Part shown: one piece after another, positions 2,006 to 62,311 of the stretch
Numbering within the stretch: the stretch's first letter is position 1
Layout: every line of letters starts with the position of its first letter
DNA from: Octopus vulgaris
Taxonomy: Eukaryota
Direction of reading: 5' to 3'
DNA length: 64,000 bases
Assembly (NCBI GenBank): GCA_951406725.2
Contig: OX597823.1
Coordinates: forward strand, 86,056,001-86,120,000
Translations under genes and position numbers: made by a program
The notes under the pieces: generated by a model
Databases searched by the model: none
Seen by the model: only the letters and a program-made list of their open reading frames with translations
Told to the model about the DNA's origin: nothing

Positions 2006-2996
2006 CGACGACGTTCTGAGTTCAAATTCCACCGAAGTCGTCTTTGCCTTTCATCCTTTCGAGATCAATTAAATAGGTACCAATTACGCACTGGGGTCGA
2101 TGTAATCGACTTGATCCCTTTGTCTCTCCTTGTTTGTCCCCTCTATGTTTAGCCCCCAGTGGTCAATAAAGAAATAAATAATAAGAGGGATATAACAGTT
2201 GGCGGCGAGCTGGCAGAAACGTTAGCACGCCAGACGAAATGCTTAGCGGTATTTCGTCTGCGTTACGTTGTGAGTTCAAATTCCGCCGAGGTCGACTTTG
2301 CCTTTCATCCTTTCGGGGTCGATAAATTAAGTACCAGTTACGAACTGGGGTCGATGTAATCGACTTAATACCTATGTCTGTCCTTGTTTGTTCCCTCTCT
2401 GTTTAGCTTCTTGTGGGCAATAAATAACTAAGAATCGGACAAGATGCCAAGCTTCATTTTTCTTCGTCTTTACCTTGAGTTGAAATAAATCCGCGGCCAA
2501 ACTTGCTTTTTCGCATTTCAGAGTCTATGAAATGTATACCAGTTGAGCACAGGGGTTGATGTAATCGACTAGCCATCCTCAACAAAACTTCAGGCCTTGT
2601 GCCTATGATACAAAACATATTATTGTTGACGGCAAGCTGACAGAATCGTTAGCGCATCGGGCAAGATGCTTAGCGATATTTCTTCTCCCTCTTTACGTTG
2701 AATAAAATACCTCCAAGGTCAAATTTGTCTTTCGTCATTTCGAGTTCGAAAACATTCAGAAACTGTCAAGCCCTGGGGCCAATATAAGTGGCAAGACCCT
2801 ACCACAAATTTCAGAGTTTGTGCCTATATTAAAAACAATTAAAGGCGCAAACTAGCAGGATCGTAACTGCGCTGGATGAAATGCTTAACAGAATTTTATT
2901 CGTTTCCTTATGTTATGCATTCAAATTCCGCGCAGGTCAACATTACTTTTATCCTCTCTGAGTCGATAACATAAGTAGCAATCAATCTTGTTGTAA

Positions 2997-3400
2997 GGCG
3001 ACGAGCTGGCAGAAGCGTTAGCACGTCGGGCGAAATGCTTAGCGGTGGTTCGTCTGCCGCTACATTCTGAGTTCAAATTCCGCCGAGGTCGACTTTGCCT
3101 TTCATCCTTTCGGGGTCGATTAAATAAGTATCAGTTACGCACTGGGGTCGATATAATCGACTTAATCCGTTTTTCTGTCCTTGTTTGTCCGCTCTGTGTT
3201 TAGCCCCTTGTGGGTAGTAAAGAAATAGGTATTTCGTCTGCCGCTACGTTCTGAGTTCAAATTCCACTGCGGTCGACTTTGCCTTTCATACTTTCGGGGT
3301 CGATAAATTAAGTACCAGTTGCAAACTGAGGTCCATCTAATCGACTGGTTCTCTCCCGCAAAGTTTCGGGCCTTGTGCCCAGAGTAGAAAAGAATATTCT
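2997..3400 (+). mobile_element. SINE family A, composite (head-core-tail-core-tail2)
   Basis: Head GGCG.CGAGCTGGCAGAA..GTTAGC (A box-like), GAGTTCAAATTCC (B box), core GTCGACTTTGCCTTTCATCCTTTCGGGGTCGAT twice. Related copies at ~1459-1640, 2010-2185, 2201-2430, 2630-2980. Confidence 0.85.
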
Positions 3401-3428
3401 AAGGCAGCGTGTTGGCAGAAACGTTAAC

Positions 3429-3429
3429 A

Positions 3430-3479
<50 letters not shown>

Positions 3480-3572
3480 GCTACTGCTGCTTCTGCTTCT
3501 GCTCTTGCTGCTACTTCCACAACTACTAGTGAAGCTGCTGATGTTACTACTACTGCTACCACCACTATTACT

Positions 3573-3638
<66 letters not shown>

Positions 3639-3696
3639 TACTGCTGCTGCTGCTACGTCTACTACAACTGCTGCTGCTACTACTACTACTACTACA

Positions 3697-3755
<59 letters not shown>
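3429..3755. repeat. (CTA)n/(CTG)n microsatellite
   Basis: Direct reading. Confidence 0.95.
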
Positions 3756-3758
<3 letters not shown>

Positions 3759-4499
3759 AGGAATTATGTGTGCATGTTCAGTTACATTAACCATGATCGT
3801 GGCAAAGACGAATTCAATGCTAACAACACCGCTGTGACGCATCACACATATAAGTATAAATATGCATCGAAAACAATCTAGTGATGACCATTGAATTCGC
3901 CTTCGATTTTACAGATAATTTGTTGACTAAGTTATTAATGTAACTTAAGTTGTATTTGCTGCTTTGTTTTGCTGTTCATACCCTTTACGCTCTTGATCCA
4001 ACCGACTAATGATCGAATATATTCCGCTACGTGGTTGCGTGTTCATTTCCGCAGCACGGCAGTAAAAGATAAATTTAGAGTAATAGTTTCTATTGTATTT
4101 TTGCTTTAAATTGTTTTTGTTTAATCATAGGTTAGCTTTGATTCTGCAGACTTTGATCAAAAGCGTTCCATGCGTGACAATGATGTATATTTTCAGGCGT
4201 CGCGAATGTAGTACCAGCGTATCACCTGTATTTTATTCATCATCGGAGATATTAGGATGTATCTGCGATGTGGGGTGGTGGGTTATACCAGAAGCTATTT
4301 CTTGAGGGCGGAAGAGTGCGGAAAGGAAAATTATGTATGTTACGGCTGTGCGTGTTCGTGTGTGTGACCGTGAGAGAGAGAGAGAGAAAGAAAGAGAAAA
4401 GAAAGAAAGAAAGAAGTTGGGAGAGTAAGACTAGTAGTAGATAAAATGACGTGTAAAATAACAAACGTTTCAAAGATACGAAATAGAAATGGATTTTTT

Positions 4500-5120
4500 T
4501 TTAGAAAACCACGAGACGAAAGCCATTCTATCAGACTTTATCAAAAGCAAATAATGAAACACCACTATGGAACAACACGCGAAATAATTCTGGTACATCG
4601 CATATTATAAAAGATTTCAGAAATTGGCACATGGACGCTACTTTTGGACATGTCAATTCATAGCGCTCTTGAAGGAAAACATTCAGATAATATAGTCAAA
4701 TGCCAAATGCAAAAGAAAAAAAAATATCATCTAATCGACGTATGAATTCCAGCGAATGGCAACGTATTTCTAAAAAGAAAAGAAGACATCATCCAAATAC
4801 AAAGAGCTGGAAATTGAGATAAATGCAATGAGTCAATTGAAAGGAAACAGTATTTCTAATAATAATATGGTGCCTTGGAAGCAGTGACAAAGAAAAAGAT
4901 TCTGACAAAAGCGTTGTGAAAACACCAAGTGTTATAGAAAATATGCAGAAAATATCACCACTAACCACAGGACACATATTACGCAGTTTACAGTTAATAC
5001 AAAAGAAAAATGCAAAAATCATACAAAAACCTAGCGCATACTCGAGGCTCATGGAGTAGCAATCGGTTGTTCTGTGAAAGCCCACAAAAGTTGAAATCTC
5101 TGAAATAGTAATAATGATAA
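4500..5120 (+). mobile_element. Degenerate RLE-type (R4/Dong-like) LINE 3' end
   Basis: Across frameshifts: LIDV*IP.N.N, SKYKELEIEI, GAL..V.K, MQKI..LTTGHILR; short AAT-type tail. Confidence 0.55.
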
Positions 5121-5400
5121 ATTGCTAAAACAAATAATCACTATTCTTTTATATATATATATATATATATATAAATTTACAGGTTATTTTCACAAGCTGC
5201 TGCAAATTAATCATCCTAGATTCTACACTCTTGATAAACGTTTTAATACGAAACGTACGTTGTGCACCGGTCCCAAATATGAAGTTATATAATAATAAGC
5301 GATAAAATATTAGTGACGCTGAGACACTTTTACCACCTGTCTAACTTTACAAACGCTACACCAATTCCACTTCTGAAGTTAGAATATAAGTTTGTGTGAA

Positions 5401-5810
5401 GGCGGCGAGCTGGCAGAATTGTTAGCACTCCGGGCGAAATGCTCAGCGGTATTTCGTCTGCCGTTACGTTCTGGGTTCAAATTCCGCCGAGGTCGACTTT
5501 GCCTTTCATCCTTTCGGGGTCGATTGAAATAAGTACCAGTAACGCACTGGGGTCGATATAATCGACTTAATCCATTTGTCTGTCCTTGTTTGTCCTCTCT
5601 GTGTTTAGCCCCTTGTGGGTAGTAAAGAAATAGGTATTTCGTCTGTCTTTACGTTCTGAGTTCAAATTCCACCGACGTCGACTTTGCCTTTCATCTTTCG
5701 GGGTCGATAAATTAATTACCAATTACGTACTGGAGTCGAGTCCATCTAATCGCCAGGCCACTTCCCCCCAAATTTCGGGACTTGTGCCTAGAGTAGAAAG
5801 CAAAGAATAT
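5401..5810 (+). mobile_element. SINE family A, composite
   Basis: Same head, core and tail modules as 2997-3400. Confidence 0.85.
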
Positions 5811-14348: not shown

Positions 14349-14405
<57 letters not shown>

Positions 14406-14588
14406 AAAGGGCTTAGTAAAATAAATTACTTCGCCGCATACTGAACTCATTAGAAATAGCAGCTAAAAAACTTTTTTAAAGCTATTTCTAATACTTAAAG
14501 AAAATCTCTCTCATATATAGCGTTTGCCTAATTCAACTCACAAAAGTTTGGGGGTAAGGACATTAAAAAATCAAATGCTAAGGTTATT

Positions 14589-14640
14589 TGAGTACGTACG
14601 TTTCAAGATTAGTTAAAACAACACTTCTTTCTTCAGCTCA
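14589..14640 (-). ncRNA. Minimal type I hammerhead ribozyme, copy 1 of the 546-bp tandem unit
   Basis: Minus strand reads UGAG-CUGAAGA-AAGA(loop)UCUU-GAA-ACGUACGU-A-CUCA. Stem I UGAG/CUCA, intact CUGANGA and GAAA core, stem II AAGA/UCUU, palindromic stem III. Predicted GUA cleavage between 14593 and 14592. Confidence 0.8.
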
Positions 14641-15134
14641 GAAATTCCTTGGTTTGGATTTGGAAACACTGAAAGTAAGAACATACCCTTTCGAAGATTC
14701 GCTCGTTACTAACAGTGCCAACAAACCCAAAATAAGCAAGTGAAGAATTTCTGTTCTCCCCTTTCCACCAGCGTGGGTTAAAATCATCAAACGCTATGCT
14801 TATTTCGGTAAAATCCGAAGCATTAATTAGAAGGAGATTAATTATAATTTCAACAATTGAGGGTAAAATTAATTAATTATTAATCAATTTCACCAAGTGT
14901 TCAGTATGCAAAGGGACCATTTAAGGCGAATTCAAATTATTACATTATATAAAAGGGCTTAGTAAAATAAATTACTTCGCCGCATACTGAACTCATTAGA
15001 AATAGCAGCTAAAAAACTTTTTTAAAGCTATTTCTAATACTTAAAGAAAATCTCTCTCATATATAGCGTTTGCCTAATTCAACTCACAAAAGTTTGGGGG
15101 TAAGGACATTAAAAAATCAAATGCTAAGGTTATT

Positions 15135-15186
15135 TGAGTACGTACGTTTCAAGATTAGTTAAAACAACACTTCTTTCTTCAGCTCA
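15135..15186 (-). ncRNA. Minimal type I hammerhead ribozyme, copy 2 of the 546-bp tandem unit
   Basis: Identical to 14589-14640, offset by exactly 546 bp. Confidence 0.8.
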
Positions 15187-15414
15187 GAAATTCCTTGGTT
15201 TGGATTTGGAAACACTGAAAGTAAGAACATACCCTTTCGAAGATTCGCTCGTTACTAACAGTGCCAACAAACCCAAAATAAGCAAGTGAAGAATTTCTGT
15301 TCTCCCCTTTCCACCAGCGTGGGTTAAAATCATCAAACGCTATGCTTATTTCGGTAAAATCCGAAGCATTAATTAGAAGGAGATTAATTATAATTTCAAC
15401 AATTGAGGGTAAAA

Positions 15415-15839
<425 letters not shown>

Positions 15840-15919: not shown

Positions 15920-15923
<4 letters not shown>

Positions 15924-16045
15924 TTAGAGACAAAACCACTATTTTGCAAAACAAACAAGGAAAGACTTAATCAATACATAAAATTTTAATAAAAGTCAAA
16001 AAAACCGCCACTACAATTGTTTCTTGTCTTGATCGACAATCTTAA
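15920..16045 (-). mobile_element. Truncated third copy of the same family; hammerhead 5' core lost
   Basis: TTAGAGACAAAACCACTATTTTGC terminus and CCACTACAATTGTTTC..GTC..GACAATCTT. Homology stops inside CUGAAGA. Confidence 0.55.
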
Positions 16046-16569
16046 ATTCCTTTCTAGAAGGAATAGGAATATCTTTCAAAGATGAATCCCAAAACAGCGG
16101 TTCTATCTTACCTGTAAAATCCATAATTTACGAAATTGAGGTATTACACTCAATATACAAAATTATCAATATATATATATATATATATATTTAACATGTT
16201 ATTATCTAAAAAAATAATGATCAAATGGCCAGCAAACATATTTCAAATAAGCAAATTCTCCGTGCGGGTTTAAAATATGGAGGTGGAAACAGAAATAAGT
16301 CTAAGGCATTTCAATTTAAGAGAGAATTTAATAAAAATGATTTTAAAATTATATAAAGAAAATATTACCGGTTCCAATGTATCTCATCTTATCAATTTAT
16401 CAGTAAAAATTTATAAAAAATTGGAGTAAAAACATTTTATCTTCTATCTGGGGGTCAAGAATATGTCTGGAGATTTTTCATTGAAGTCTTCTGTGAATGT
16501 AGTTTGGTGTAGAGTTCAAAGCGTTAAAGAGAGAGAGAAGGGGTGTCTATTGTCTAAAAGTAACCTTAG

Positions 16570-16866: not shown

Positions 16867-17429
16867 GAAACATTTCTTTAAGACAAGAGACACCGATAAA
16901 ATAGACAAAAAAAAAAAAGCGAACAAAAAAAACACTGTTAGAATAAGTAAAAGATTTAAAAAGTAAATGTTGGGGTCATTTCGTTCAACTAAAATACTTC
17001 TGACACATAAAAAAGATACTGAACCTTATTCTATCGACAGCGAAAGGAGGAAAAGTGAAGTCGACCCGGACGGCAATTGAGATCGGTACCTAAAGGCGGA
17101 AGAAATGTCACTAGACCTTTTGTCCAGCGCGGCAATGACCCTACTTTTGTATACACACGTGTATGTGTGTGTGTGTGCATATGTGTGTGTGTGTGTGTGT
17201 GTATGTACGTGTATATGCGTTCGTGCATGTGTGTGTCTGTCTATCTGAGTATAATGTATGTATGTATGTATGTATAATTTGTGTTATCTCCCCACTAAAA
17301 TATTGAGTTAATTTGGCGACAAGAGATTGAATTAAAAGGGTCAGATCCTTTTGATTCAATATTTTAACACACTGTTGACTTTTGGCCTTCTCTATAGGAA
17401 TGGTATGATTTGTTTTAAAAATGTTATCA

Positions 17430-17830
17430 GAAACGATAGCACGCCGGACGAAATGCGTAGCCGTATTTCGTCTGCCGTTACATTCTGTGTTCAAATTTCA
17501 CCGAGGTCGACTTTGCCTTTCATCCTTTCGGGGTCAATAAATTAAGTACCAGTTACGCACTGTGGTCGATGTAATCGACTTAATCCGTTCTCTGTCCTTG
17601 TTTGTCCTCTCTGTGTTTAGCCCTTTGTGGGTAGTAAAGAAATAGGTATTTCGTCTGTCTTTACGTTCTGAGTTCAAATTCCACCGAGGTCGACTTTGCC
17701 TTTCATCCTTTCGAGGTTGATACATGAAGTACCAGTTACGTACTGGAGTCGTTGTATTCGACTTAATCCCTTTGTCTGTCCTTGTTTGTGCCTTCTACGT
17801 TTATCCCCTTGTGGGCAATAAAGAAATAAG
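17430..17830 (+). mobile_element. SINE family A, two core+tail units
   Basis: Sequence match to family A. Confidence 0.85.
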
Positions 17831-17919
17831 ATGCTTAATTTTTCCAGTTTAAATGTTTATTAATTTTTTCAGATTTGTATGATTTATTATAAAAAATACT
17901 AATCCTTTGGCTTTTCATG

Positions 17920-21344: not shown

Positions 21345-21690
21345 ATTTCGTCTGCCGTTAAGTCCTGAGTTCAAATTGCACATAGGTCGACTTTGCCTTT
21401 CATCTTTTCGGGGGTAGATTAAATAAGTACCAGTTATGCACTGGGGTCGATGTAATAAACTTAATCCGTTTGTCTGTCATTGTTTGTCCCCTCTGTGTTT
21501 AGCCCCTTGTGGGTAGTAAAGAAATAGGTATTTCGTCAGCCGCTACGGTCTGAGTTTAAATTCCGCCGAGGTCGACTTTGCCTTTCATCCTTTCGGAATC
21601 GATAAATTAAGTACTACTGGAGTCAATCTAACCGACTGGCCTCTTCCCCCAAAATTTCGGGCCTTGTGCCTCGAGAAGAAAAGAATATTT
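21345..21690 (+). mobile_element. SINE family A, 5'-truncated composite
   Basis: Sequence match to family A. Confidence 0.8.
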
Positions 21691-23356: not shown

Positions 23357-23682
23357 TGCATATACTCGAATCACGATTGTTGCTGCTAGAATGCCTGTGA
23401 TCACGAGCGTGTTCGATCAAAACCGATCTTGGTATTAAACAACAACAAAAACAACCACCACCTACGCAGCGTCATTATTTCGCTGACGAACATCTCACGT
23501 GTTTTCAACATTCGAGTAATAAAGTTTTTAAAAGAACCACAATCCACTCCCTACTTTTATCATACTTAAATAGCTATTGTCATTTCAGTACACTAAATAA
23601 TTTTGCTATCACTTTAAGCTGCTTAATCTGTTATATTAATGGCAATGCTCCAGACGAAAATCCAATATTGCTTATTTTATAA

Positions 23683-23915
23683 GGCGGTGAGCTGGCAGAA
23701 TCGTTAGCACGCCAGGTGAAATGCTTAGCAGTATTTCGTCTGCCGTTACGTTCTGAGTTCAAATTCCGCCGAGGTCGACTTTGCATTTCATCCTTTCGGG
23801 GTCGATAAATTAAGTACAAGTTAAATACTAGGGTTCATGTAATCGACTTAATCCCTTTGTCTGTCCTTGTTTGTCCCCTCTGTGTTTAGACCCTTGTGGG
23901 CAATAAAGAAATAAG
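23683..23915 (+). mobile_element. SINE family A monomer
   Basis: Head, B box, core and CCCTTGTGGGCAATAAAGAAAT tail. Confidence 0.85.
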
Positions 23916-23998
23916 AAACGCTTGCACGCCAGACGAAATACTCCAGTATGGCCGCAGTCCAATAATTGAAAGAAGCAAAACACACAAAAGGAAGATTC

Positions 23999-30430: not shown

Positions 30431-31183
30431 TGTGCTTGCGTGCGCATGTGTAAGTGTAGGTGAAAAAATAGAGTATTATATAGCTATATACGCATGTGCA
30501 CACTTATCGTTTTCTGTGTGCGTGTGGCTGTATTTTAGCAGAATTTATTATTTCCCCTTCGGGTTATCGTCTTGTACCCACCATCAATATCCAAATATAT
30601 CTATTTTTTCAATTATCCTATTTTTTTTTCTTTCAAATAAATATTTAAACTTTAAAATTATGAGAAAATTTATATAAGTATTAATATAACCTACAGCATT
30701 TGAGAAATTATAGATAGCACCAAATACGCAGTGTATGCATCGACTTGGTTCGAAGAAAACGCACATTCACCCTCCCTGGGACGTATATTTAGGTGGGAAT
30801 GATAGTCATGTCGCATTTCATCATGGGCGGAAAAAATCAAATGCTTGTTTGGTCTTAACTGGTATCTTCTATCAGTTAATAATTCCTTCTCGTCAAGGCG
30901 GCGAGCCGTTAAATATACTTAGCGGTATTTTGTATGTTTTAACATTCTGAGATCAAATGCCGCTGGGGTCGACTTTGCCTTTGAAACATTTTGGGGTCGA
31001 AAAAATAAGTACCGGTTGAACATTGGGATCGATATCACTGATATAGTCCCTCCTCTGAAACTGATAAACTTATGCTAACGTAATCTCATCTATTTGAGAA
31101 ATTGTTATTCCCTCGGACGTCAAATTCTTCAACTTTTCTAAGTAAGGAAACACTTTAGAATCTCAATATTATTAACAAAACAA

Positions 31184-31585
31184 GGTGGCGAGCTGGCAGA
31201 AGCGTTAGCACGCCTGGCGAAATGCTTGGCGGTATTTCGTCTGCCGTTTCGTTCTGAGTTCAAATTACGCCGAGGTCGACTTTGCCTATCATCCTTTCGG
31301 GGTCGATTAAATAAGTACCAGTTACGCACTGGGGTCGATGTAATCGACTTAATCCGTTTGTCTGCCCTTGTTCGTCTCTTCTGTGTGTAGCCCCTTGTGG
31401 GTAGTAAAGAAATAGGTATTTAGTCTGTCTTTACTTTCTGTGTTCAAATTCCTTCGAGGTCGACTTTGCCTTTCATCCTTTCAGGGTCGATAAATTAAGT
31501 ACCAGTTGCGTACTGGAGTCGATCTAATCGAGTGGTGCCCCTCCTCCAAAATTTCGGGCCATGTGCCTAGAGTAGAAAACAATAT
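31184..31585 (+). mobile_element. SINE family A, composite
   Basis: Sequence match. A diverged copy lies at ~30897-31080 and a headless copy at 32823-32988. Confidence 0.85.
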
Positions 31586-31906
31586 TATTAACAACGTAAG
31601 GCAGTAAGCTTGTCAGAATTGTTCGTATGTCGAGAGAATAACTGCCATACTCTGAAAAATAAGGACTGGGGTTGCTACGTTCGATTAAGCCCCTTCAAGA
31701 TGGTGACCCATTATGGCTGCTGTCCAATGACTGAAACAAGTAAAAGATAAAACGATAAAGATGTTTTCTGCATAACTAAATGCAGTTTAAATTCCTTAAA
31801 GTGGTGTACAGGATATGAGCTTAATCAATTGAAACTATAACTAGTAATGAAACATAAAATCATTAACTTTATACTAACGACTCCTAAAAGGGTCAAGGGA
31901 GAGAAC

Positions 31907-32355
31907 TTTTTTTTTATGCCTTTAACCCTCCCACGCGGAGTATAGGCCACTTATAGTTGAATTCCATGTCGCATAATTTTTCGCTTCTGTACTTATACTC
32001 TGCCATGAATGTTCCCCTTTCTCTAGTTCCTTTTGTGTTTATCTACGCCACAAGTTCTTAGGCCTACCTTTCTTTCTATATCCATCCGGATTCCACTGTA
32101 AAGCACTTTTCGCTACATTTGGTGTGTCTTTTCTATTTGTGCTACCAGTCCACTTCCACTTTTTCTTTAATATTTGCTCCCTAATCGAAACTTGATTTGT
32201 TCTTTGCCATGGCTCCATATTGCTTATGTGTTCGGGCCATCTAATTTTAAGTATACTACACAAGCATCTGTTGATGAATGATTGTATTTGCTTATTTGAC
32301 TTAACTGCTGTTCGCCATGTCTCAGCCCCATACAATGACGCCGCTTTTACGTTAG
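31907..32355 (-). mobile_element. RTE-clade LINE 3' fragment
   Basis: LYGAETW..INRCL..ILKIRW...ISN..W..KWKW.G...RK....ALQWNP.G.RKKGRPK..WRR, ending in an A-run at ~31907-31915. Confidence 0.85.
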
Positions 32356-33118
32356 TGTTAACGAGATTTAAATCCATAAAAGTTAAAAAGACAAGCACGG
32401 GTTTGTAATTGTTTCTGATCATGGAAGACAATGTTGACAACTCCAAATAGATATAGAATATATTAGACTAGTTCAAAGAAGCTGCCGAAGATCAGACAAA
32501 TTCCTTCACCATTGCATATGTTGATCAAATGAAAATTTAAAAACTTTACTTCCTTTGTCACACTGAAATTAATTGTCATTAATATAAAAAAATATTTTCA
32601 TATGAGGCTACGAATCCAGTTCATTAAGAAATAGAGCACGTCGAAATAACGGGATCTGGCAGTTCCAGCACCCGTAGCAGATGATTCTCGTCCGCCGGCA
32701 ATATAAATGTGTGCGCTTGTATACATCATATAAATGTGTACGCTTTTATACATCAGGCTAAATAACGCAGATTTCGGTGTTCTAATTATACACTCACGTT
32801 AAGCTGATATAAAGCTGGATATACGTTCTGAGTTCAAATTCCGCTGAGGTCGACTTTGCCTTTCATCCTTTCGGGGTCGATTAAATAAGTACCAGTTACG
32901 CACTGGTGTCGATATAATCGACTTAATCCGTTTCTCTGTCCTTGTTTGTCCGCTCTGTGTTTAGCCCCTTGTGGGTAATAAAGAAATATATATATTTAAA
33001 AAAAGAACTACTATAGTATTATTTTGACAACGAAGCTACAATGAGTGTTTATTAAAAGAAATCTCGTTTGAATGTATATATGCACGTATGTGTGTTTGTG
33101 GTTGTGTGCACTTGAGAG

Positions 33119-37701: not shown

Positions 37702-38350
37702 TTAGTATTTAGTTGACATTCCCTTTGTAGTTTTTAATTCAGAAACTCTTGTTGGTATTGAACTGATGAGCTTTGTGATTGTCTCTTGTGGAATTTCTGC
37801 CCAGTTTTCACGCAATACTCGAAACAATTCATCTTTTAGATTTAGGTTTCTGCCGATTTTTTCGTATAGCTCTATCTAGTATGCTCCAAAGATTTTCAAT
37901 TGGGTTCATGTCAGAAGATTGGTTTGGCCAAGAAAGAATCTGATCACATTTTCAGTCAGCCATTGTTGATTTCTTTTCGCTGTGTGACATGGAGCCTCAT
38001 CTTCCATGAATAAAAAATCACTTTTCGTTATGTTATCGTGTGAATACACCGGAAGTAGTCCTTGCTTAACTATTTCAATGTATATTTCAGAGTTTATGGT
38101 TCCAACACATTCAATCAGCTCAGAACGACCATTGCTGGTGACAGCTCCCCATACCATTACAGAGATACCGCCATGTTTTACAGTTGGTTGGAGTCGTTTC
38201 AAATCAAATTCTTGATTGGGAAGCCTCCAGATCCAAACACGATCACTGTCTGAAAATAATGCAAATTTGGATTCATCTGAGAAAATCACTCTATCCCAAA
38301 CGAACAGGATTTTTCTAACATCTCCTTAGCCCATTTCTTTCTTTTCATGA
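37702..38350 (-). pseudogene. Tc1 transposase catalytic-domain fragment
   Basis: IFSDESKF, PTVKHGG.SVMVWG, FMEDEAPCHTAK, NPIENLW, KGMSTKY*. No TIRs recognised. Confidence 0.85.
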
Positions 38351-38551: not shown

Positions 38552-38879
38552 GCTCGCACACACACATGCGCGCGCATGCACATGTGTATGTATGTACGAT
38601 TACATTATGACGTAAAGTTTTCTGATACATTCCATAAAATATAACTTGGATAAACTATGTATTTGAAAGATAATTAATGGTGAGAACGATATGATCTAAT
38701 AAATAAGGTGGGGTCCATCAATGACTGCAATCCAATGACTGGAACTAGGTAACGAGAAAAAAAATAATAAATAAATAAAATAAAGAAGAAGCAAACATCT
38801 TAATTCTAATTCTCGCATCTTTTACTATTGTTGAATTTTAATCAAGTAGTAGAGATATAGACTGTAGTAGTAGACTGGT

Positions 38880-39257
38880 AACGGTTCAAAGAGCCATGGA
38901 AAGGTCAATGCTTGGTATCTCGTTGAGAGAGCACCTAAGTAGCAAGATCATCAGAAAGAAGTCCGGCGTGAGAGATGTCATCGCAGAGTATACACGCAGC
39001 AAGTATAGATGGGCTGGACACGTCGCCCGGCTCACCGATAATCGGTGGACGCACGCAATTGTCGAGTGGTACCCGCGTGAGCGGAAAAGACCACCCGGAA
39101 GACCTCCACGACGGTGGAATTACGATTTCAGGAGGACGATTGGGATCACGTGGATGAGAAAGGCGCGATCCAGAGAGGAGTGGACAGTGTGCTGTGACCA
39201 GCAGTGTCAAATGGACGCCTGACGGACTGGTCGGTCAAAGTGATCAAAGTCAAAGTT
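38880..39257 (+). mobile_element. RTE-clade LINE 3' fragment
   Basis: MERSMLGISLR..KYRWAGHVARLTDNRWT..EWYPRERKRPPGRPPRRW, with a short GTCAAA-repeat tail. Confidence 0.88.
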
Positions 39258-39718
39258 GAGATATTTTCCCAGTTTTGTAAATTTAACAATATATATATAC
39301 TTCAACAGAGTTCTGTTTTCTCCCTTTTTTACGTATATCATAATGGCTGATTTTCGTTATTTTCCGGTAATCTTTCCTTAAATTAACGATAAGCGAGAAA
39401 AACGAGTTAACATACAAATATTGTAGTGAGAAATTTCAAGTGGCTTGCAAATCGCAGTAATCAGTTAATCTGTAATTCTTACGCACCTTTTGCGCATTAG
39501 AGTGTGGTCATAGCATGAGCACTATCTTCACGTATATTAATCGATTATGTTAATCTCAATGAATTGGATATACACTCTCTATCGAATTCTAGAGGCAAAC
39601 GCACGGTGGAAAAACAAGGGGTTTCTTGTCCTCTGTTCAAATTGATTCAGATATACCTCCTATGTTATATATATATATATATATATAAGCGAGAAAGAAG
39701 CAACAAGAATGGATAGGT

Positions 39719-39809
39719 TTTTAGTACAATCGTTTCATACAAGGACAGGCTTTATTAAAAGTTGCAAAAATTACAGCATATAAACGTGTCCCGTACTCAT
39801 CAGCTAAAA
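39719..39809 (-). ncRNA. Mirror-image hammerhead ribozyme in the left arm of the palindrome
   Basis: Reverse complement of 39994-40084. Confidence 0.75.
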
Positions 39810-39993
39810 TACATGTGAGTTCTCTAGACATCCTAGTGGTTGAGGCTATACTCATGAAGTAATGTAGATAATTAAGTAACATAATATAAACAGATTTCTA
39901 AAGTTCATTAAAGTTCATTAAAGATTAAAGATTATCTACATTACTTCATGAGTATAGCCTCAACCACTAGGATGTCTAGAGAACTCACATGTA

Positions 39994-40084
39994 TTTTAGC
40001 TGATGAGTACGGGACACGTTTATATGCTGTAATTTTTGCAACTTTTAATAAAGCCTGTCCTTGTATGAAACGATTGTACTAAAA
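39994..40084 (+). ncRNA. Type I hammerhead ribozyme in the right arm of a 189-bp palindrome
   Basis: UUUUAG-CUGAUGA-GUACGGGACA...UGUCCUUGUAU-GAA-AC GAUU GU-A-CUAAAA. 6-bp stem I, canonical core, long stem II with one bulge, GUA site after 40078. Confidence 0.8.
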
Positions 40085-40227
40085 ACCTATCCATTCTTGT
40101 TGCTTCTTTCTCGCTTATAATCACCCCACATTACTGTATTGTTAAATCAGTATAGATTTTTTTGGTGCATCTAAGTTAGGTACCATATTCAAGTTAATTC
40201 ATTTAAATTAACTTGAATCTTTATTGC

Positions 40228-40288
<61 letters not shown>

Positions 40289-40372
40289 TTAGAGACAAAA
40301 CCACTATTTTGCAAAACAAACAAGGAAAGACTTAATCAATACATAAAATTTTAATAAAACGTAAAAAAACCG

Positions 40373-40415
40373 CCACTACAATTGTTTCATGTCTTGAACG
40401 ACAATCTTCAGGTGG
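40373..40415 (-). ncRNA. Minimal type I hammerhead ribozyme
   Basis: CCAC-CUGAAGA-U-UGUC(GUUCAA)GACA-U-GAA-AC AAUU GU-A-GUGG. Palindromic stem III ACAAUUGU; the 10.1-11.1 position is a U-U mismatch. Confidence 0.75.
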
Positions 40416-41213
40416 ATTTCCGATCTAAAATATCAATATTTTAAAATATAAGTATAAAAAATAATTTTAAAATAATTAAAGTATCAATGAAAAAATATAA
40501 ATATATAACCTATATATAACCTATATATAATCCATATATAATCAATATATAAACTAAAATAAACCTATCAACAATTAAATATAAAACAAAATAAAAATAA
40601 ACTATATATACACCCATACACATATAACTAAGTATATATAACCATATCTAAATACATACACTAACTCACACACCTATATATATATCCCTATACATACACA
40701 TAAAAACGTCTAGGCAACGATAAATAAATAAAATAGCCAAATACTTCAACACAATACTTATTCATACTCCCTCACACACACATAGAACCCACATTCATAA
40801 ACAATATACGTATACCCGCTCACACATACATATACAAACATACAGAACTCGATATATACACCAATATATTCACACCCACATCTATACAGATAAATAAATT
40901 ACGCAAACAATCACACACACACACACACACACATTCACACATACATAAACACTCAAAAGAAAAATAAACAATTCTTTACACGTGGTGATCGAACGTTTTT
41001 TTTTAAAAATTATGAATGGAATAATATATAATCAACTTAAATATACAGAATTTACTACAAATCATTAATAAACCATCATGATAAATGAAACCCATATACA
41101 TATAATGATAAAACTCCCTTTACCATACACAATTATACCTATATAGCAATCTCCATATATACATTCACACACAAATATACATACGTAAAACACACACACA
41201 CAACATATACGTA

Positions 41214-42892
41214 CACTACCGTCAGAAATTAATTAGCACCCTTGATTTACTCTTCACTCAAGGTATTTGCTGTCACCTAGTGGCCATATCTCGAACTATT
41301 GCTTTGTTGCGAGTTCACTGTTGCGCAGAACGATGACGTAACATTGTTTGCAGAGCAGTTTGAGAGTCTACAGCCTAATGATGTTGACATAGCAGTGCAA
41401 CAACAACTTGGAGTGCAGATGCAGACAAATCTTCCTTTGTATAATAGATATAGGTGGCGCCTCGCAAGGACCGAAATCACACCGTACTAAGTTTTCTCAT
41501 CGCGTAAGACGTTTTGAACAGCTCGTAGGTTAATTGATTTGTGTATTTGCAAGATTTTTTTTCCTCACAAATTCTCCTACACTCTGCTTGGTGACGTCAC
41601 TTCCGGTTCACAAAACTTTCAGTTATACATCAAATAAGGTGAGAAATTCTGCTTTCTTTCTTTTTTGTTTAATGAATAATAACTCACAGCAGTTTTGTTA
41701 TAGCATAACATTATTCAAATGAACAGTTTTAATGAAAATAACTGGTTTTTATCGTACAATCCTAGATGGGCCCAAGACCTCGCATGACCTTGGAGAGACG
41801 GTACGAGGCTCTCTCGTGGCGTGGGAAGCTGTCGGAGGCTGCAATAGCCAGAAGACTTGGTGTAGCCAGGCGCACAATTCAGTGCTTATTTAAGAAATAC
41901 GAGGAAACCGGATCAGCAGCTGACAAAAAGGGTAGGGGACGGAAGAGGCTGACGACCCAGCGGGAGGACCGGATGCTGATCCGAAAGTCACTGTACAACC
42001 GAAGAGCAACGAGCCGGCAACTGGCGGAGGAGATGCAAAAGATGACAGGGAAGCAGTTGTCTACAACCACCGTCAAGATCAGATTACTGGAAGCTGGTCT
42101 AAAATCCTGTAGGGCCGCCCGTAAGCCGCTCCTTACAGCCCAAAACTGGAAGAGGCGGCTGCTCTGGGCCCATGCCCACAAGACATGGACCGTGCAGCAG
42201 TGGCGGACAGTGATGTTCACTGACGAGTCGCGATTCAGTCTCATCAGTGACAAGCCTGTCCATGTGCGACGCCGCAGGGGTGAGCGCTTCAACAAAGACT
42301 GCATTGCTCCCACCATGAAGCATGGTGGGGTGGTCTGATGGTGTGAGGGGCGTTCAGCTACAGTGGTGTTGGGCGGCTCTATGCCGTCGAAGGCAACATC
42401 AACGCAGCAAAGTACGTTGAGATAGTACGGGATACCTCTTTGGTGGCGAGGAGTACGTGCTCCAGCAGGAAAACGCGCCTTCCCACACAGCCAAGCTCAC
42501 AACCGGTTTCTTCAAGGACCATGACCTGACCTGAACCCTATTGAGAACCTCTGGAGTCGATTAGGTAGGGATTTGAATGAGCAGCAATACAGGAACCGAC
42601 ACGAGCTGTTTGGGGCACTTCTTGCAGCATGGAGGGCCATCCCTGCACAGTACCTGCAGGCACTCATAGACAGCATGCCGACCCGCGTAGCAGCTGTCAT
42701 TGCTTCCAAAGGAGGAGCAACAAGATATTGACAAAATTTCACGATTAATAACAATTATGTGGTGTGCTGGGATATGTTTTAATAAATTTTTGATTAAAAA
42801 CGAGTTCGTTTCTGATAATAAGTTAATTAAATTAAGAAAATGTAAGAAAATGTAGAAATTTGAGAAGTGCTAATTAATTTCCGACGCAAGTG
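41214..42892 (+). mobile_element. Tc1-family DNA transposon, 1679 bp
   Basis: Imperfect TIRs CACTACCGTCAGAAATTAATTAGCAC / GTGCTAATTAATTTCCGACGCAAGTG and TA on both sides. An empty target site is preserved at ~43915. Confidence 0.93.
41766..42731 (+). pseudogene. Tc1 transposase, frameshifted after ~190 codons
   Basis: HTH (IARRLGV), GRKRLTT, ARKPLLT, W..VMFTDESRF, PTMKHGG. Downstream frames give DLNPIENLWS and the C-terminal GGATRY*. Confidence 0.9.
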
Positions 42893-44075
42893 TATACCCC
42901 CTCACATATACATATACATACGTACTAAACTCGATATATACAACAATATGTTCACACCCACACTCATACAGATAAATAAATTACACAACTAAAATACGCA
43001 CACACACACATTCACACATACATAAACACTCAAAAGAAAAACAACATTACTACACATAATACGATATATAAAATACTTCATAAGTAACCAGAATATCATA
43101 AGTAACAAGATTAACATAAGGAGAAAAAATATACATACTTTCAAATCAGTTTCAATTTATGAAGTGAAATTAAACTCTAGCCGTTAAAAACATCAAACAA
43201 AATTACGTTACCATAGGAACCTAACATATGTATAAAAAGTATTCGCGCTCTGGAAACGAACGTCATTTAAAATTATGAATGGAATAAATGGAATTAAAAA
43301 TTATATTCACGTGGTAAACGAACATTACTTAAAAATTATGAATGGAATAATGTAATAAAATAACAAACATCATAAATAGACATAAATTCATACAAATTCT
43401 TTAATAAAACTACCATGATAAACTAAAACTCATAAATACATATAATAATAACACCTCCCTTTACTAAACTCTATAACATACCTATATAGCAATCCCCCTA
43501 ACCTATACATTCACACACAAATACACACACGTAAACCACACACCCACGACATATACAAATACCCACCTCACTCACACATACCTATACATACGTATAAACC
43601 TCGATATATACACCAAAAATTCACTCACACACCCATGCAGATAAATAAACATATACATCCTTAAAAATGGGTGCAATCTCACGCACATCAATCATGCATG
43701 TATACAAGTGCATACACAAGAATAATATATAATCAACTTAAATATACAGAATTTACTACAAATCATTAATAAACCATCATGATAAATGAAACCCATATAC
43801 ATATAATGATAAAACTCCCTTTACCATACACAATTATACCTATATAGCAATCTCCATATATACATTCACACACAAATATACATACGTAAAACACACACAC
43901 ACACAACATATACGTATACCCCCTCACATATACATATACATTAAGTCTTTCCTTGTTTGTTTTGCAAAATAGTGGTTTTGTCTCTAATTAATATTATATA
44001 ATATTTTACTTTGAAATTGGATTTAATCCTAAATCTGATTTTTTCCCTGTAAATTTGGATTTATTCCCTAATATT

Positions 44076-48127: not shown

Positions 48128-48132
<5 letters not shown>

Positions 48133-48479
48133 TTAGAGACGAAACCACTATTTTGCAAATCAAACAAGGAAAGACTTAATCAATACATTAAAAAATTTCA
48201 ATATAAAGTAAATAAATCGCCACTACAATTGTTTCCTGTCTTCAAATGACATTCATCAGGTGGATTTCATATCTAAAAATATCAATATTTTAAAAAATAA
48301 AATTAAAATGGCTAAAACTATAAATAATATAAATTTATCAATGAAAAAATATAAAAATATATAATTTATATATAATCTATATATAATATAATCAAGAACT
48401 AAAATAACCTCTATAAACAATTGAATATAAAGAAACCTATTATTAAAGTTCTCATATTTAAAGATGAAGAATCTAATTT

Positions 48480-50002: not shown

Positions 50003-51236
50003 TTAGGTTGTCAAGAAAGTTCTTGCGGAAGTTTCATTTTGGTTTTAAATTATGCATTTTCAAATTACTTTGACTGCCCCGTTTTTCGCTCTCTCTGATC
50101 GTATTGCACTTTTTGTTTTTGAATATTTAGGCTACTTTTTCCGGAACGTTGAATACAACATGGACAAAATGGAAATTCGCACAATTTTCTTATTCCAGTT
50201 GAAGCTAGGCCAAAAATCTGCTGAAAAAGCTCCTGATATCGACAATGCATTAGCCCAGGAACCACTGAAGAACGTACAGCACAATGATGGTTCAAGAAAT
50301 TTAGTAGCGGTGACGAGAGTCTTGAAGATGATAAGCGTAGTGGTCGGCCATCGGATGATGACAACGATCAACTAAGAGCCTTAGTCGAAGCCAGTCCACG
50401 CACAACTGTTCGAGAGCTTGCTTCTGAATTAGATGGTACATATACGATAATTTCCAGCCACTTGGAAGAGACTGGAAAAGCAAAAATACTTGAGAAATGG
50501 GTGCCGCACGAATTGAACGACAACCAAAACAATCGCCGTTTTGAAGTGTCGCCTTCCCTTCTTTTATGCAACAAGAACGATCCCTTTCTCGATCGGATTG
50601 TGACTTGCGATGAAAAGTGGTTTCTTTACGACAACCGTCGAAGCTCAGCTCAGTGGCTGGACGCCAACGAAGCTCCGAGGCATATCCCGAAGCCAAAGTT
50701 GCACCAAAAAAATGTCATGGTGACTAAATGGTGGCCTGCGGCCGGTCTCATCCATCTCAGCTTTTTTGATCGAGGTGAAACCATTACGGCGGAGAAGTAC
50801 TGTCAGCAAATAGATGAAATGCATAAGAAACTCCGACAACAACAGCCAGCACTATTCAATAGAAAAGGACCAGTTCTTCCCCACGACAACACTCGGCCGC
50901 ATGTCGCACAACTGACCTGGGCTATGAAACTCTGCCTCATCCGCCATACTCACCAGGTCTCTCGCCTACCGACCAGCACTTTTTCAAGCATCTCGACAAC
51001 TTCCTTCGTGCGAAATGTTTCAAAAACCAAGGTGATGCCAAACACGCCTTCAACGACTTCATCGCAACCAGAACGCATGATTTTTACGCTACTGACGTAA
51101 GTAAACTTGTTTAGTGTTGGCAAAAGTATGTTGATTCTAATGATGTTTATTTCGATTAATAAAGTTTTGTTTGAGCCGAGATATGGGCATCTGAATTTAA
51201 AGGTTAAAAACCGCAAGAACTTTCTTGACAACCTAA
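50003..51236 (+). mobile_element. Mariner DNA transposon, 1234 bp
   Basis: Perfect 26-bp TIR TTAGGTTGTCAAGAAAGTTCTTGCGG; TA at 50001-50002 and 51237-51238. Confidence 0.95.
50160..51159 (+). pseudogene. Mariner transposase with frameshifts
   Basis: WVPHEL, FLDRIVTCDEKW, HDNTRPH and a frameshifted HPPYSP-like motif. Confidence 0.92.
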
Positions 51237-51984
51237 TACAAAGCAATCTAAAAAATATTCAGACACAGAAATTAATCTTCTCATCTACTTACATGGTCTG
51301 AATGATTGATGAAGATGTTGATAATCGATATAATATAGTTGATAATCGATATAATATCTTTCTCACTGCCATCCGTGTGTCCGTCCGTAACACTACTTCA
51401 ATGATTTCATGAAACATGACATTTTGCAGAATTTGAAAAATGTATTATGACGTCATTTCAATCATGATTCTTCAGAAAGTTAAAGAAAGTAATATATTTG
51501 ATATTTTTTACTTTCCTCTATATTTCGTATGGCAATTTCAAGAAATTTCTATTATGACGTCATAATTTACCGATTTGATTTTCAAGTAATTTATTTGGAG
51601 AAACAAAATATCAAAGAAAGGAATATATTCTGCCTATATATTAGTTTCAAATTTTGGCACAAGGCCAGCAAACTCGGGGGCGGGACTAAGTCAATTAAAT
51701 CAACCCCAGGGTGAAACTGGTACTGATTTTTATCGACTCTGAAAGGATGAAAGGCAAAGTCGACCCCGGATGAATTTGAACTCAGAACATATAGGCGGAG
51801 AAAATGCCGCTAAGCATTTTTTCCAGCGTGGTACCGATTCTGCCAGCCCTTTGATTTCTACTTACAAACTGAATCCACTTAAGGTAAAACAATTTTTGTC
51901 TTATTTTTGGATAAAAAAATATTTTTATGGAGCACAACACAAAAAATTGGACCATATTTGACACGTCCGATATGGGAAGAGAAT

Positions 51985-52745
51985 ATTCTTTTCTACTCTA
52001 GGCACAAAGCCCGAGAGATTTGGGGAGTGGGCCAGTCGATTATATTGACCCTAGTACACAACTGGTACTTAATCTATCGACCCAGATTGGATGAAAGGCA
52101 AAGTTGACCTCGGCAGAATTTGAACTCAGAACGTAAAGACAGACAAAATACCTATTTCTTTACTACCCACAAGGGGCTAAACATAGAGGGGACAAACAAG
52201 TACAGACAAACGGATTAAGTCGATTACATCACCCCAGTGCGTCGAAAGGTAAAGTCGACCTCGGTGGAATTTGAACTCAGAACGCAGCGGCAGACGAAAT
52301 ACGGCTAAGCATTTCACCTGGCGTGCTAAAGTTTCTTATTTCTTTACTACCCTCGAGGGGCTTAAAGATAGAGGGGACAAACAAGTACAGACAAAGGGAT
52401 TAAGTCGATTACATCGACCCCAGTACGTACATAATTTATCAACCGCGAATGGATGAAAGACAAAGTCGACCTCGGCCGAATTTGAACTCAGAACGTAACG
52501 GCAGACGAAATACCTAATTCTTTACTACCCACAAGGGGCTAAACACAGAGAGGACAAACAAGGAGAGACAAATGGATTAAGTCGACTATATCGACCCCAG
52601 TGCGTAACTAGTACTTTTTTAATTGACCCCGAAAGGATGAAAGGCAAAGTCGACCTCGGCGGAATTTGAACTCAGAACATATCGACAGATGAAATACCGC
52701 TAAGCATTTCGCCTGGCGTGCTAACGATTCTGCCAGCTCACCGCC
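51985..52745 (-). mobile_element. SINE family A multimer (four core units)
   Basis: Reverse-complement head at ~52745 followed by four GTCGAC..GAACTCAGAAC core units. Another diverged copy at ~51650-51850. Confidence 0.85.
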
Positions 52746-52974
52746 CTCGAAACGCCAATATATTATAACAAGAAGATAAGTACTCTTTCTAACCTTTCTG
52801 TTCTCAATTGTTTGACGAATTTTATTCTTCATAGCATTTCGTTCGAAGTAGATTCCTAGCACCTTAGCTGGACTCTCGATTCAGCAACAGATGTCAAGGT
52901 TCTGCATGAATTCCCTTATTAATATGTCAGGTTATAATTCTACACTGTTATCTAGCCCAATACCCTGTCGAATA

Positions 52975-60130: not shown

Positions 60131-61161
60131 TAATATCAGGTTGGACCGCCTTTGCCAGTAATTACAGCTTGAATTTTACGAGGTATGGACTCGTACAAAG
60201 TTTGAATTGCTTCCAAAGGAATTTTTGTCCATTCTTCAGCTAAAACAAGTTTCCAGTTCTTGTAGTGATGATGGAGGATAACGACTCCTTAATTGTTTTT
60301 TCTAAAATGCACCATAATTATTCGATAATATTGAGATCTGGGGACTGTGGTAACCAGATAAGATGTTCAACTTCACTAGAATATTCCTCCTATCATTCAG
60401 TAACAACATTACCTGTGTGAATTGGTGCATTATCATCCTGAAAAATTGCGTTTCCCTCCGGTAATAGATCCGCAATCAATAGGATGAATTTTATTCGATA
60501 AAATGCTTAAATAGTCTTGACTATTAATTCTGCCTAGAAGAGGAACCCTTGGGCCTGCGTATTTCCAAGATATATTCCTCCAGATCATCACATATCCTCC
60601 TCCATGTTTAACAGTTGGAAAAAGGCTGTCTGGGTCAAATGCTTCTTTTGGCCTGTCACCACACGTATATTCGGTCGGTGGTCAGAAATAAGGTGAAGGA
60701 TCACTCATCCGAGAAAATAACATTCTTCCACTGAACTAGGGACCAATTCTGTAGGTTTTTACTCTACTCTAAATGCTTTTCAACGTTTGTTTTTGAAAGT
60801 AGTGATTTTCTGATTACAGCCCTCCCATGAAATCCAGCTTTGTGCAGCTTCCGGCGAACAGTTTTTGTGGAAGCTGGGTTCTCGAAGTGGTCATTAAGAC
60901 CTGTAGTAATTTTGGGAGCTGTACTTTTGTGATCCTTTTAAAAATTCGTGTGAGAGCCCGACGGTCCCTATCTGAGAATTTTGCTTTTCTTTTAGAGCTT
61001 TGTTTCGACGAGAAGGGGTGTCCCTCTTTCTCAAAGGCTGTCATTGCTTTCGAGACAGTACTTCTTGATACACCAAATATTTCGGCTGCTTTCCTTGTGC
61101 TAGTGCCTGCCATACGAGCACCACCAATTTGACTTCTTTGAAAGTCCGATAGATCTGTCAT
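60131..61161 (-). pseudogene. Degenerate Tc1 transposase
   Basis: MTDLSDFQRSQIGGARMAG..AEIFGVSRSTVSK (HTH). Later frames give W..VIFSDE, FQDDNAPIH, PQSPDLNIIE and a GGPT end. Confidence 0.85.
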
Positions 61162-61295
61162 TTTAACGAATTTTAATTACCTTTTCCTGATGATATCTGA
61201 AAAGAAACAGCAATTTTAGCAAAACATATTAAGCAACACTAGTAATAAATAAATAAAAAACGTAAAAATATACAAGCGATGAAGAATTATGAACA

Positions 61296-62311
61296 TTATT
61301 TACATTATTTACATTTGACAGATATTTGTCCTCATCTTGTTTGTTGTTAACATGTTTCGGCTGATATACCCTCCAGCCTTCAGCAGGTGTCTTGGGGGAA
61401 ATTTCGAACCTGGGTTCTCCTTCCTAAGGTATTTTTCGATGTTATTATTATTATTAGGGAATGAGAACCCAGGTTCGAAATTTCCCCAAGACACCCAATT
61501 TCTTTATTAGCCACAAGGGCCCAAACATAGAGGGGGACAATAGAGCCTGATTGGAGTCAGACACACAATGATTATATGACTTGTAAAATTTTAAAAAATA
61601 TAATGAAATCGAATAAAATCGAATGAGCTACAACAAGGACGAAATACAAACATGAGATGAAGCAGAGAGATGGCTTACGCTCCGACCCCACGAGCCCCAT
61701 TCTCCTACTGAAACTTTTATATGCAGACTTATGACATGTTCACGAGGAATCTTTCATTCCCAGCACCCTTGCAATACGCAACCATCTTTCTTTGAACATT
61801 TTCTTTGACAGGCATCTTCTTTCCAGCCTCACCTTCCTTTTAAGGTGGAAGATTAAATATCTCACCAACCCAAGACCGGAGTTGAGGTTGCCTGTCGCCA
61901 AACCATTCATTCGCGACTTCCATACCACCTCTTTCGCTATTGCTACTACTGCGAGAAAACATTGCTTACCTTCCTTCGTGAGGAAATCCGGCGGGTCAAT
62001 TTTTACGATTGACTCAGACGACAGCTGTACTCTTCCCGAACCTGACAGTAGATGTTCTGCATAAACCCACACTTCAGACACTCCCGGATACTGAACAATA
62101 GCGTGCAGGACAGTTTCTCTATCCCGTCCGCATCTTGGACAGTCGGCAGTGGTGGTTCAACCGTGTCAATGCCAGCTTATCTCGAACGGGTAAGGCTCCT
62201 CGGTAACATTGCCAGGCCAGGGATGAAGGATGGAGGGTATTTCAGCTGAGACGTTGTGTTAACAAGAAATAATATGAGAATAAATATGTCAAATGTAAAT
62301 AATGTAAATAA
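61296..62311. mobile_element. Palindromic hammerhead-bearing element split by a LINE fragment
   Basis: Left arm 61296-61427; right arm 61454-61495 plus 62222-62311. Two-arm consensus ACAC-CUGAUGA-A-GGCUG..CAGCC-GAA-ACGU-U-GUGU; each arm is individually degenerate. Confidence 0.6.
61497..62221 (-). mobile_element. L1/Tx1-type LINE 3' fragment
   Basis: CPRCGRDRETVLHAIVQY zinc-knuckle remnant followed by ..IAKEVVWKSR..FKERW; 3' UTR ends in AATAAAGAAAA. Confidence 0.75.

Follow-up and report, generated by a model that had tools for sequence, protein, structure and literature searches.

Our analysis leans towards reading positions 39684-40231 of the window (the whole 64,000-nt stretch of Octopus vulgaris DNA analysed here) as a head-to-head pair of 5'-truncated ends of a high-copy hammerhead repeat, inserted into a (TA)n microsatellite, likely in one event of a Penelope-like element (PLE) and likely with both sides of the cut acting as primers. 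We are highly confident that the insertion is of the PLE type; given such an insertion, we judge the two-primer step fairly probable. Four structural marks of PLEs are present, namely a hammerhead near the 3' end, an inverted 5'-truncated copy, an optional tail and a (TA)n target, an assignment made from structure and not from the defining open reading frame (ORF).

Anatomy of the palindrome and its surroundings

The window consists of repeat-rich, AT-rich animal-type DNA with many microsatellites and transposon fragments, and its short interspersed repeats resemble octopus ones. Its self-comparison confirmed that the left arm (39684-39872, minus strand) and the right arm (39931-40119, plus strand) of the inverted repeat are exact reverse complements, with all 189 positions paired and a gap of 58 nt, as the preliminary description had stated, and that the antisense arm precedes the ribozyme arm on either strand, as it had also stated. 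The 113-bp unpaired tail and the (TA)n that it placed behind the right arm are present as well, with a tail length of 112 nt (40120-40231), or 113 if the first T is counted.

The left copy (39684-39925, minus strand, 242 nt) is 5'-truncated at 39925 and ends, tail-less, at the short 3' end of the element (site A), and the right copy (39931-40231, plus strand, 301 nt) is 5'-truncated at 39931 and ends, with the tail, at the long 3' end (site B). The left copy holds 53 nt of upstream sequence absent from the right one (39873-39925, minus strand), identified from contigs as unpaired family sequence that makes up most of the 58-nt spacer; the right copy holds the 112-nt tail (plus strand) absent from the left one, and this tail contains a 13-bp hairpin (40187-40218, plus strand). 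The head-to-head joint, whose position was taken from contigs, carries a tandem 7-nt duplication (TAAAGAT twice, 39919-39932, plus strand) with a filler at 39926-39930 (plus strand), the final AT of the duplication being common to the start of the right arm. On the left, the target microsatellite is (TA)11 (39666-39687, no strand), and its last four nucleotides, TATA, are common to the short 3' end of the element; on the right it is (TA)25 (40232-40281, no strand), which also adjoins family B, another repeat with a hammerhead, at the 3' end of the latter. Because both flanks are (TA)n, a target-site duplication is unreadable. Self-comparison of the window found no direct repeat of the element at the locus, and a second copy of its family was found neither among the first 80 self-BLAST matches nor in a low-complexity-filtered search. 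The ORF list of the window contains no recognisable PLE ORF, and three-frame translation gave no long ORF in either of the two truncated copies. A bacterial promoter scan gave 0 matches, its model being inapplicable to animal DNA.

Family B occupies 40280-43996, with the studied palindrome in the (TA)n at its left end, and resembles a second head-to-head insertion: its minus-strand copy has a hammerhead (core at 40411, minus strand), and the terminal 57 nt of its short plus-strand 3' end (about 43940-43996) mirror 40280-40336 exactly. It also contains a Tc1-like element (ORF 41766-42338) and a 135-bp exact direct duplication (41019-41153 and 43720-43854), and its hammerhead gave no Rfam hammerhead match. 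Further family B 3' ends lie beside (TA)n at 48130-48270 (minus strand, intact hammerhead core at 48259 on that strand) and at 15923-16050 (minus strand, decayed hammerhead). Another repeat, family C (14395-15417, minus strand), is a partial tandem with a 546-bp period, 477 bp at 99.8% identity and (TA)n on both sides, whose units each have a hammerhead (cores at 15182 and 14636, minus strand) with the palindromic loop CGUACG; it is a candidate retrozyme or pLTR tandem. An alignment of families B and C with the family of the palindrome (family A) was uninformative for the latter. Units of about 180 bp form a further family of short tandems at 85-90% identity (2011-5810, 17428-17831, 21345-21689, 23677-23920, 31182-31589 and 51980-52769), in which the motif scan found no hammerhead. 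The segments at 38842-39222 (plus), 32039-32467 (minus), 37906-38325 (minus), 50288-51100 (plus), 60814-61176 (minus) and 61740-62156 (minus) are ones that we take to be RTE-type LINE ends, Tc1/mariner transposases and an L1/Tx1-type C-terminus.

A high-copy family, its joints and its hammerhead motif

The palindrome stretch or a part of it is contained in 20 of the 24 public sequencing runs listed (9 studies, 4 organism labels), none of which is on record as RNA. Four of the runs, all in the form of contigs, were compared with 39300-40236 at a likeness threshold of 88, and the joint sides obtained are all shorter than 30 letters and flagged as weak for that reason; three of these runs are of DNA type (X1, X2 and X3), and the fourth (X6) is guessed to be RNA and may be DNA. 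Depth at single places of the element in X2 is about 5,000-10,000 times the 18x of the unique flank, a ratio from summed contig depth that gives an order of magnitude and not a copy number; the element is a high-copy family. The unique flank was covered by X2 only, with 10 differing letters and 2 gap letters in 350 bp, and X2 is therefore another haplotype or species. An exact 22-nt pattern of the element matched 0 stretches in metagenome contigs.

Both ends of the element could be followed in the contigs. A (TA)n stands directly behind 40119 in 20 contigs of X1 and 15 of X2, while other pieces continue to 40232-40236; since 40119 recurs as a 3' end while these pieces traverse 40120-40231, the tail between the two recurrent ends is optional. 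Loose ends at 40133-40145 (X1-X3 and X6), together with a falling depth in X3, point to subfamilies with other tails, and one X6 contig that extends at least 255 letters behind 40202 might lead to the parent element. On the other side, the spacer consists of family sequence that runs on without a break from the left, tail-less copy, as seen in an X2 piece (39804-39884, depth 1258) and an X6 piece (39846-39925). Loose ends lie behind 39925 (6 in X1, 2 in X2 and 3 in X3), where the family continues with different letters, and the contigs yielded only about 23 nt of family sequence upstream of this position.

The inverted 5' end of Penelope type that the preliminary description had recognised is supported, since it recurs in the family, whereas its anatomy had to be corrected: the joint falls at 39925/39931, with the spacer forming part of the left copy. 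Among 15 joints listed (one more lay beyond the list), 14 run from the left arm to the right arm at other breakpoints (9 in X1, 1 in X2 and 4 in X3), and the remaining one, 39855/39887, was left out as a deletion. Head-to-head joining is routine for this family. The 14 joints have depths of 7-147 and occur in one run each; 5 of them carry 1-26 inserted letters, 3 leave both hammerheads intact, and in two (39807/40119 and 39845/40115) the right side is almost tail only. Near-symmetric joints, with ends within 11 nt, number 6 of 14 against 1.6 expected (permutation P 0.002), and the excess was also found at 5, 15, 20 and 30 nt (P 0.01, 0.004, 0.015 and 0.04). It is important to consider that in so deep a repeat, library fold-back chimeras could contribute to the listed joints. 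Two X1 joints (39726/40077 and 39727/40081) have both ends at most 3 nt from the predicted hammerhead cut (40076-40081; 2 of 14, P about 0.09), and from them cleaved RNA may sometimes serve as a template.

Each arm had been described as holding a CUGAUGA/GAAA hammerhead with a 6-bp stem I, and our analysis recovered this motif at 39994-40084 (plus strand) and, as its mirror image in the left copy, at 39719-39809 (minus strand, core starting at 39803). The right motif was identified by motif scan, folding and alignment with the Rfam model, and its cleavage is predicted between 40078 and 40079. It consists of stem I (39994-99/40079-84, 6 bp), the core CUGAUGA (40000-06) and GAAA (40067-70), stem II (40007-16/40056-66, about 10 bp, with a loop of 39 nt), a stem III with a one-pair extension and the self-complementary loop CGAUUG (40071-76), and a GUA triplet. 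As a sequence motif it has the features of a minimal type I hammerhead, that is, a CUGANGA...GAAA...NUH core, three stems and an open stem I; minimal hammerheads are described in parts of PMC6155905. The motif scan gave 6 matches on the two strands of the window against a total of 1 in 20 shuffled windows, where matches with a 6-bp stem I numbered 0. An Rfam scan of the entire window brought 0 families to their gathering score, and Hammerhead_1 (RF00163), applied to 39960-40120 alone, aligned its positions 1-45 with 39994-40084 at 18.4 bits (E 0.04), below its gathering score of 34; the long loop II is an insertion relative to this model. Matches to miRNA and sRNA families by E-value across the palindrome, all below their gathering scores, reflect the hairpin only. 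The two recurrent 3' ends follow the motif at distances of 35 and 147 nt, and the ATG in its core opens only 8 codons.

Variation among the contigs was compared with this structure. Among the variants listed for the three DNA-type runs, none at 5% or more falls in the core or in stem I, and no two-sided compensating change was seen in the stems. The 40060 C>T variant produces a G-U pair and keeps the hammerhead fold, and the common 39787 T>A breaks the last (terminal) pair of stem II in many copies. At 40072, G>A reaches 10, 20 and 42% of depth in X1, X2 and X3 and turns the loop CGAUUG into the palindromic CAAUUG, the loop of family B; all three loops (CGAUUG, CAAUUG and the CGUACG of family C) are capable of self-pairing. 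By analogy, such self-complementary loops would suit the dimer mode of amphibian hammerheads with a weak helix III, described in passages of PMC7229834.

Folding predictions place the hammerhead fold 1.0 kcal/mol above the minimum free energy (MFE) in the isolated 91-mer; for the complete right copy this gap is 5.2, and for the palindrome 141.6. The predicted pair probability of stem I is about 0.6, 0.0 and 0.0 in these three contexts, and that of stem II is 0.0 in the palindrome; the folding energy of 39994-40086 was no better than that of shuffles (z 0.14). The expectation that the duplex would outcompete the ribozyme thus holds on paper, with the gap of 141.6 kcal/mol, but stem I is already at 0.0 in the right copy without the antisense arm. 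Because the duplex buries the hammerhead in these predictions, the ribozyme would be silenced in read-through RNA, for which no self-cleavage is predicted and which might undergo editing or dicing, with no function implied.

As to editing, six of the eight T>C places of X6 were counted: there the change is absent from X2 (depth 0), and in X1 and X3 it does not exceed a depth of 57 against totals of 100,000 or more; the other two were left out, 40030 being common in DNA runs and 40147 lying in an indel-bearing contig with the look of a tail subfamily. The six changes come from three shallow contigs with overlapping sets and from no matched individual, and no sense-strand changes are listed. The pattern looks like A-to-I editing of the antisense strand in a run that may be DNA. 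For these six sites only, a 5' G was found in 0 of 6 (P 0.34) and a 3' G in 4 of 6 (P 0.03); parts of PMC5625713 report a reduced 3' G preference in octopus editing and heavy editing of lizard Penelope. A role as ADAR or Dicer substrate, raised in the preliminary description, is plausible and has precedent in Penelope repeats, with X6 adding locally just a weak hint at the level of the family.

Origin of the head-to-head pair

We propose that a PLE GIY-YIG endonuclease/reverse transcriptase (RT) would cut the (TA)n target, that one target end would prime at site A through the 4-nt TATA match and the other at site B, and that end-joining with a short templated filler would unite the two stalled products. 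The template of the right arm would be either the same RNA or, through snap-back, the left cDNA, and if so the perfect identity of the arms would follow; both the long duplex and the presence of a hammerhead on each strand would be by-products. Two priming events account for the locus better than one fold-back, given that part of the sequence of each copy is missing from the other, and the published single-template self-priming could not yield a spacer on the tail-less copy. This reading agrees with the two almost tail-only joints and with passages of PMC11167929, according to which the protein of an anole PLE cleaves both strands and extends them, and RT starts in vitro at two sites that define the tail. 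As a tentative generalization, head-to-head PLE insertions could arise from two primers, one per target end, at the two RT start sites of the element, with snap-back in some events; we consider this possible, short of probable. Our search by title and abstract found no paper on twin priming in the PLE mechanism; it missed most subscription papers, and the idea may be in print.

The most serious competitor, which we nevertheless consider rather unlikely, is a single priming at site B, after which the cDNA would fold back (or an antisense RNA would prime itself) and be copied to site A, with exit through the TATA match; a later asymmetric deletion of the unstable centre would then account for the spacer and filler seen today. 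Perfect arm identity follows directly from such a course, self-priming is the published reading of head-to-head palindromes in the relevant passages of PMC3846280, and asymmetric deletions are reported as common at inverted junctions of transgene arrays in parts of PMC8701086. The enrichment of near-symmetric joints (6 of 14) also speaks for it, and indicates that fold-back or a shared RNA end is partly at work, against two independent stops. On the other hand, this course requires a second event here, since the spacer goes with the tail-less copy, and the joints with tail-only right sides demand deletions of 123-157 nt; furthermore, the two RT start sites and two-strand extension described in PMC11167929 were demonstrated in vitro for another PLE. 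We rejected a lone fold-back with no subsequent alteration, as each copy holds sequence that the other does not.

Three further explanations have far lower probability in our judgement. An assembly or read chimera at the locus would account for the fact that no contig crosses 39925/39931 among the 32 pieces listed (4728 more lie beyond that list), and perfect arms between microsatellites are difficult to assemble, a difficulty noted for PLEs in parts of PMC8557442; it is nonetheless very improbable, given that the two copies end at the two natural 3' ends of the family, that the tail cannot derive from a fold-back of the left copy, and that the same geometry occurs in three independent runs and in the neighbouring family of the window. 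We give slightly less credit still to the palindrome as a selected off-switch by which the ribozyme would be kept silent and ADAR or Dicer supplied with substrate. The predicted burial of the hammerhead in the duplex, the six T>C places of X6 with depth 0 in X2, the siRNAs that match inverted Penelope regions (passages of PMC3681739) and the heavy editing of lizard Penelope (PMC5625713) speak for it. Against it, breakpoints are scattered and both hammerheads survive in only 3 of the 14 other joints; the X6 changes, confined to the antisense strand, stem from three contigs of low depth that cannot be assigned to the locus; PMC3681739 reports in part that the siRNAs silenced Penelope inefficiently, and PMC11167929 that insertion by the anole PLE in vitro does not require the hammerhead, which shows no activity unless protein is present. 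The built-in silencing suggested as a purpose in the preliminary description finds no support. Least credible is a foldback or MITE DNA transposon with a hammerhead in its terminal inverted repeats by chance, an idea that the long inverted repeat in a TA context might suggest; it is largely refuted, as fixed terminal inverted repeats and a constant centre are not what the copies have: the centre differs between them, the unpaired tail is one-sided, and the arms are 5'-truncated to varying lengths.

Regarding age, 0 differences in 189 bp are compatible with the very young insertion that had been proposed, as is the occurrence of each listed joint in one run only. Arm identity is weak proof of youth, and weak evidence for one template as well, since the probability that a second copy taken at random agrees at every listed variable site is 0.04-0.42; arms can also be homogenised by gene conversion or polishing. 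Two tail letters (40156 and 40195) are rare in the family, at no more than 3% of depth, which weakens the claim of youth further. The family-rare T at 40195 perfects the 13-bp tail hairpin and may be a template-switch correction.

Significance and relation to known systems

The locus itself is ordinary, its structure matching the signature already published for Penelope-like insertions; an inverted and 5'-truncated copy, the tail, the (TA)n target, the hammerhead, and siRNAs or editing of Penelope repeats are all already in print. The insertion models can be told apart by the copy to which the spacer belongs and the copy to which the tail belongs, and a passage of PMC8557442 calls it unresolved how PLEs produce insertions in tandem or inverted form. 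With its thousands of copies and its many different junctions, the family would allow the mechanism to be settled by counting. An abundant, apparently recently active family would also be a steady supplier of perfect RNA hairpins and may in this way contribute to repeat editing and endo-siRNA in the animal; PMC13282606 reports, in part, 31 recently active Penelope-like families in O. vulgaris.

The closest systems are the EN+ PLEs (Penelope/Poseidon, Neptune, Nematis and Hydra), which share with the palindrome a type I hammerhead near the 3' end, 5' truncation, a head-to-head inverted 5'-truncated copy, a tail on one side and a (TA)n target; inverted 5'-truncated copies, one-sided tails, (TA)n targets and pLTR hammerheads are described for PLE insertions in parts of PMC8557442 and PMC3846280. 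In contrast to them, no ORF is seen in the copies studied here, the entire insertion consists of two ends only, loop II of the hammerhead is long (39 nt), and the tail measures 112 nt against the 30-40 nt published for PLEs, which counts against the PLE reading. Poseidon PAc of Anolis, as far as PMC11167929 describes it in the relevant passages, likewise has two recurrent 3' ends downstream of the hammerhead and an AT-rich target, but its ORF starts in stem II, whereas here the core ATG opens 8 codons and the two ends are 112 nt apart.

Retrozymes are presented as non-autonomous relatives in parts of bioRxiv 10.64898/2026.07.22.740005. The animal non-LTR retrozymes described there and in passages of PMC7229834 resemble our family in being non-coding, low in GC and high in copy number and in having a type I hammerhead, and the dimer-acting amphibian motifs have the same weak stem III with a self-complementary loop; unlike the head-to-head palindrome, these retrozymes form head-to-tail tandems. 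Within the window, no head-to-tail tandem units were found at the locus, which by this mark falls outside the retrozymes.

In LINE-1 twin priming, the second target strand primes a second cDNA, and the outcome is a head-to-head joint with a small filler or microhomology. The 5' inversions of LINE-1 are thus similar to the insertion proposed here in their second-strand priming and in a head-to-head joint with filler, and they differ in that L1 products are non-overlapping parts of one RNA, whereas here 189 nt are duplicated.
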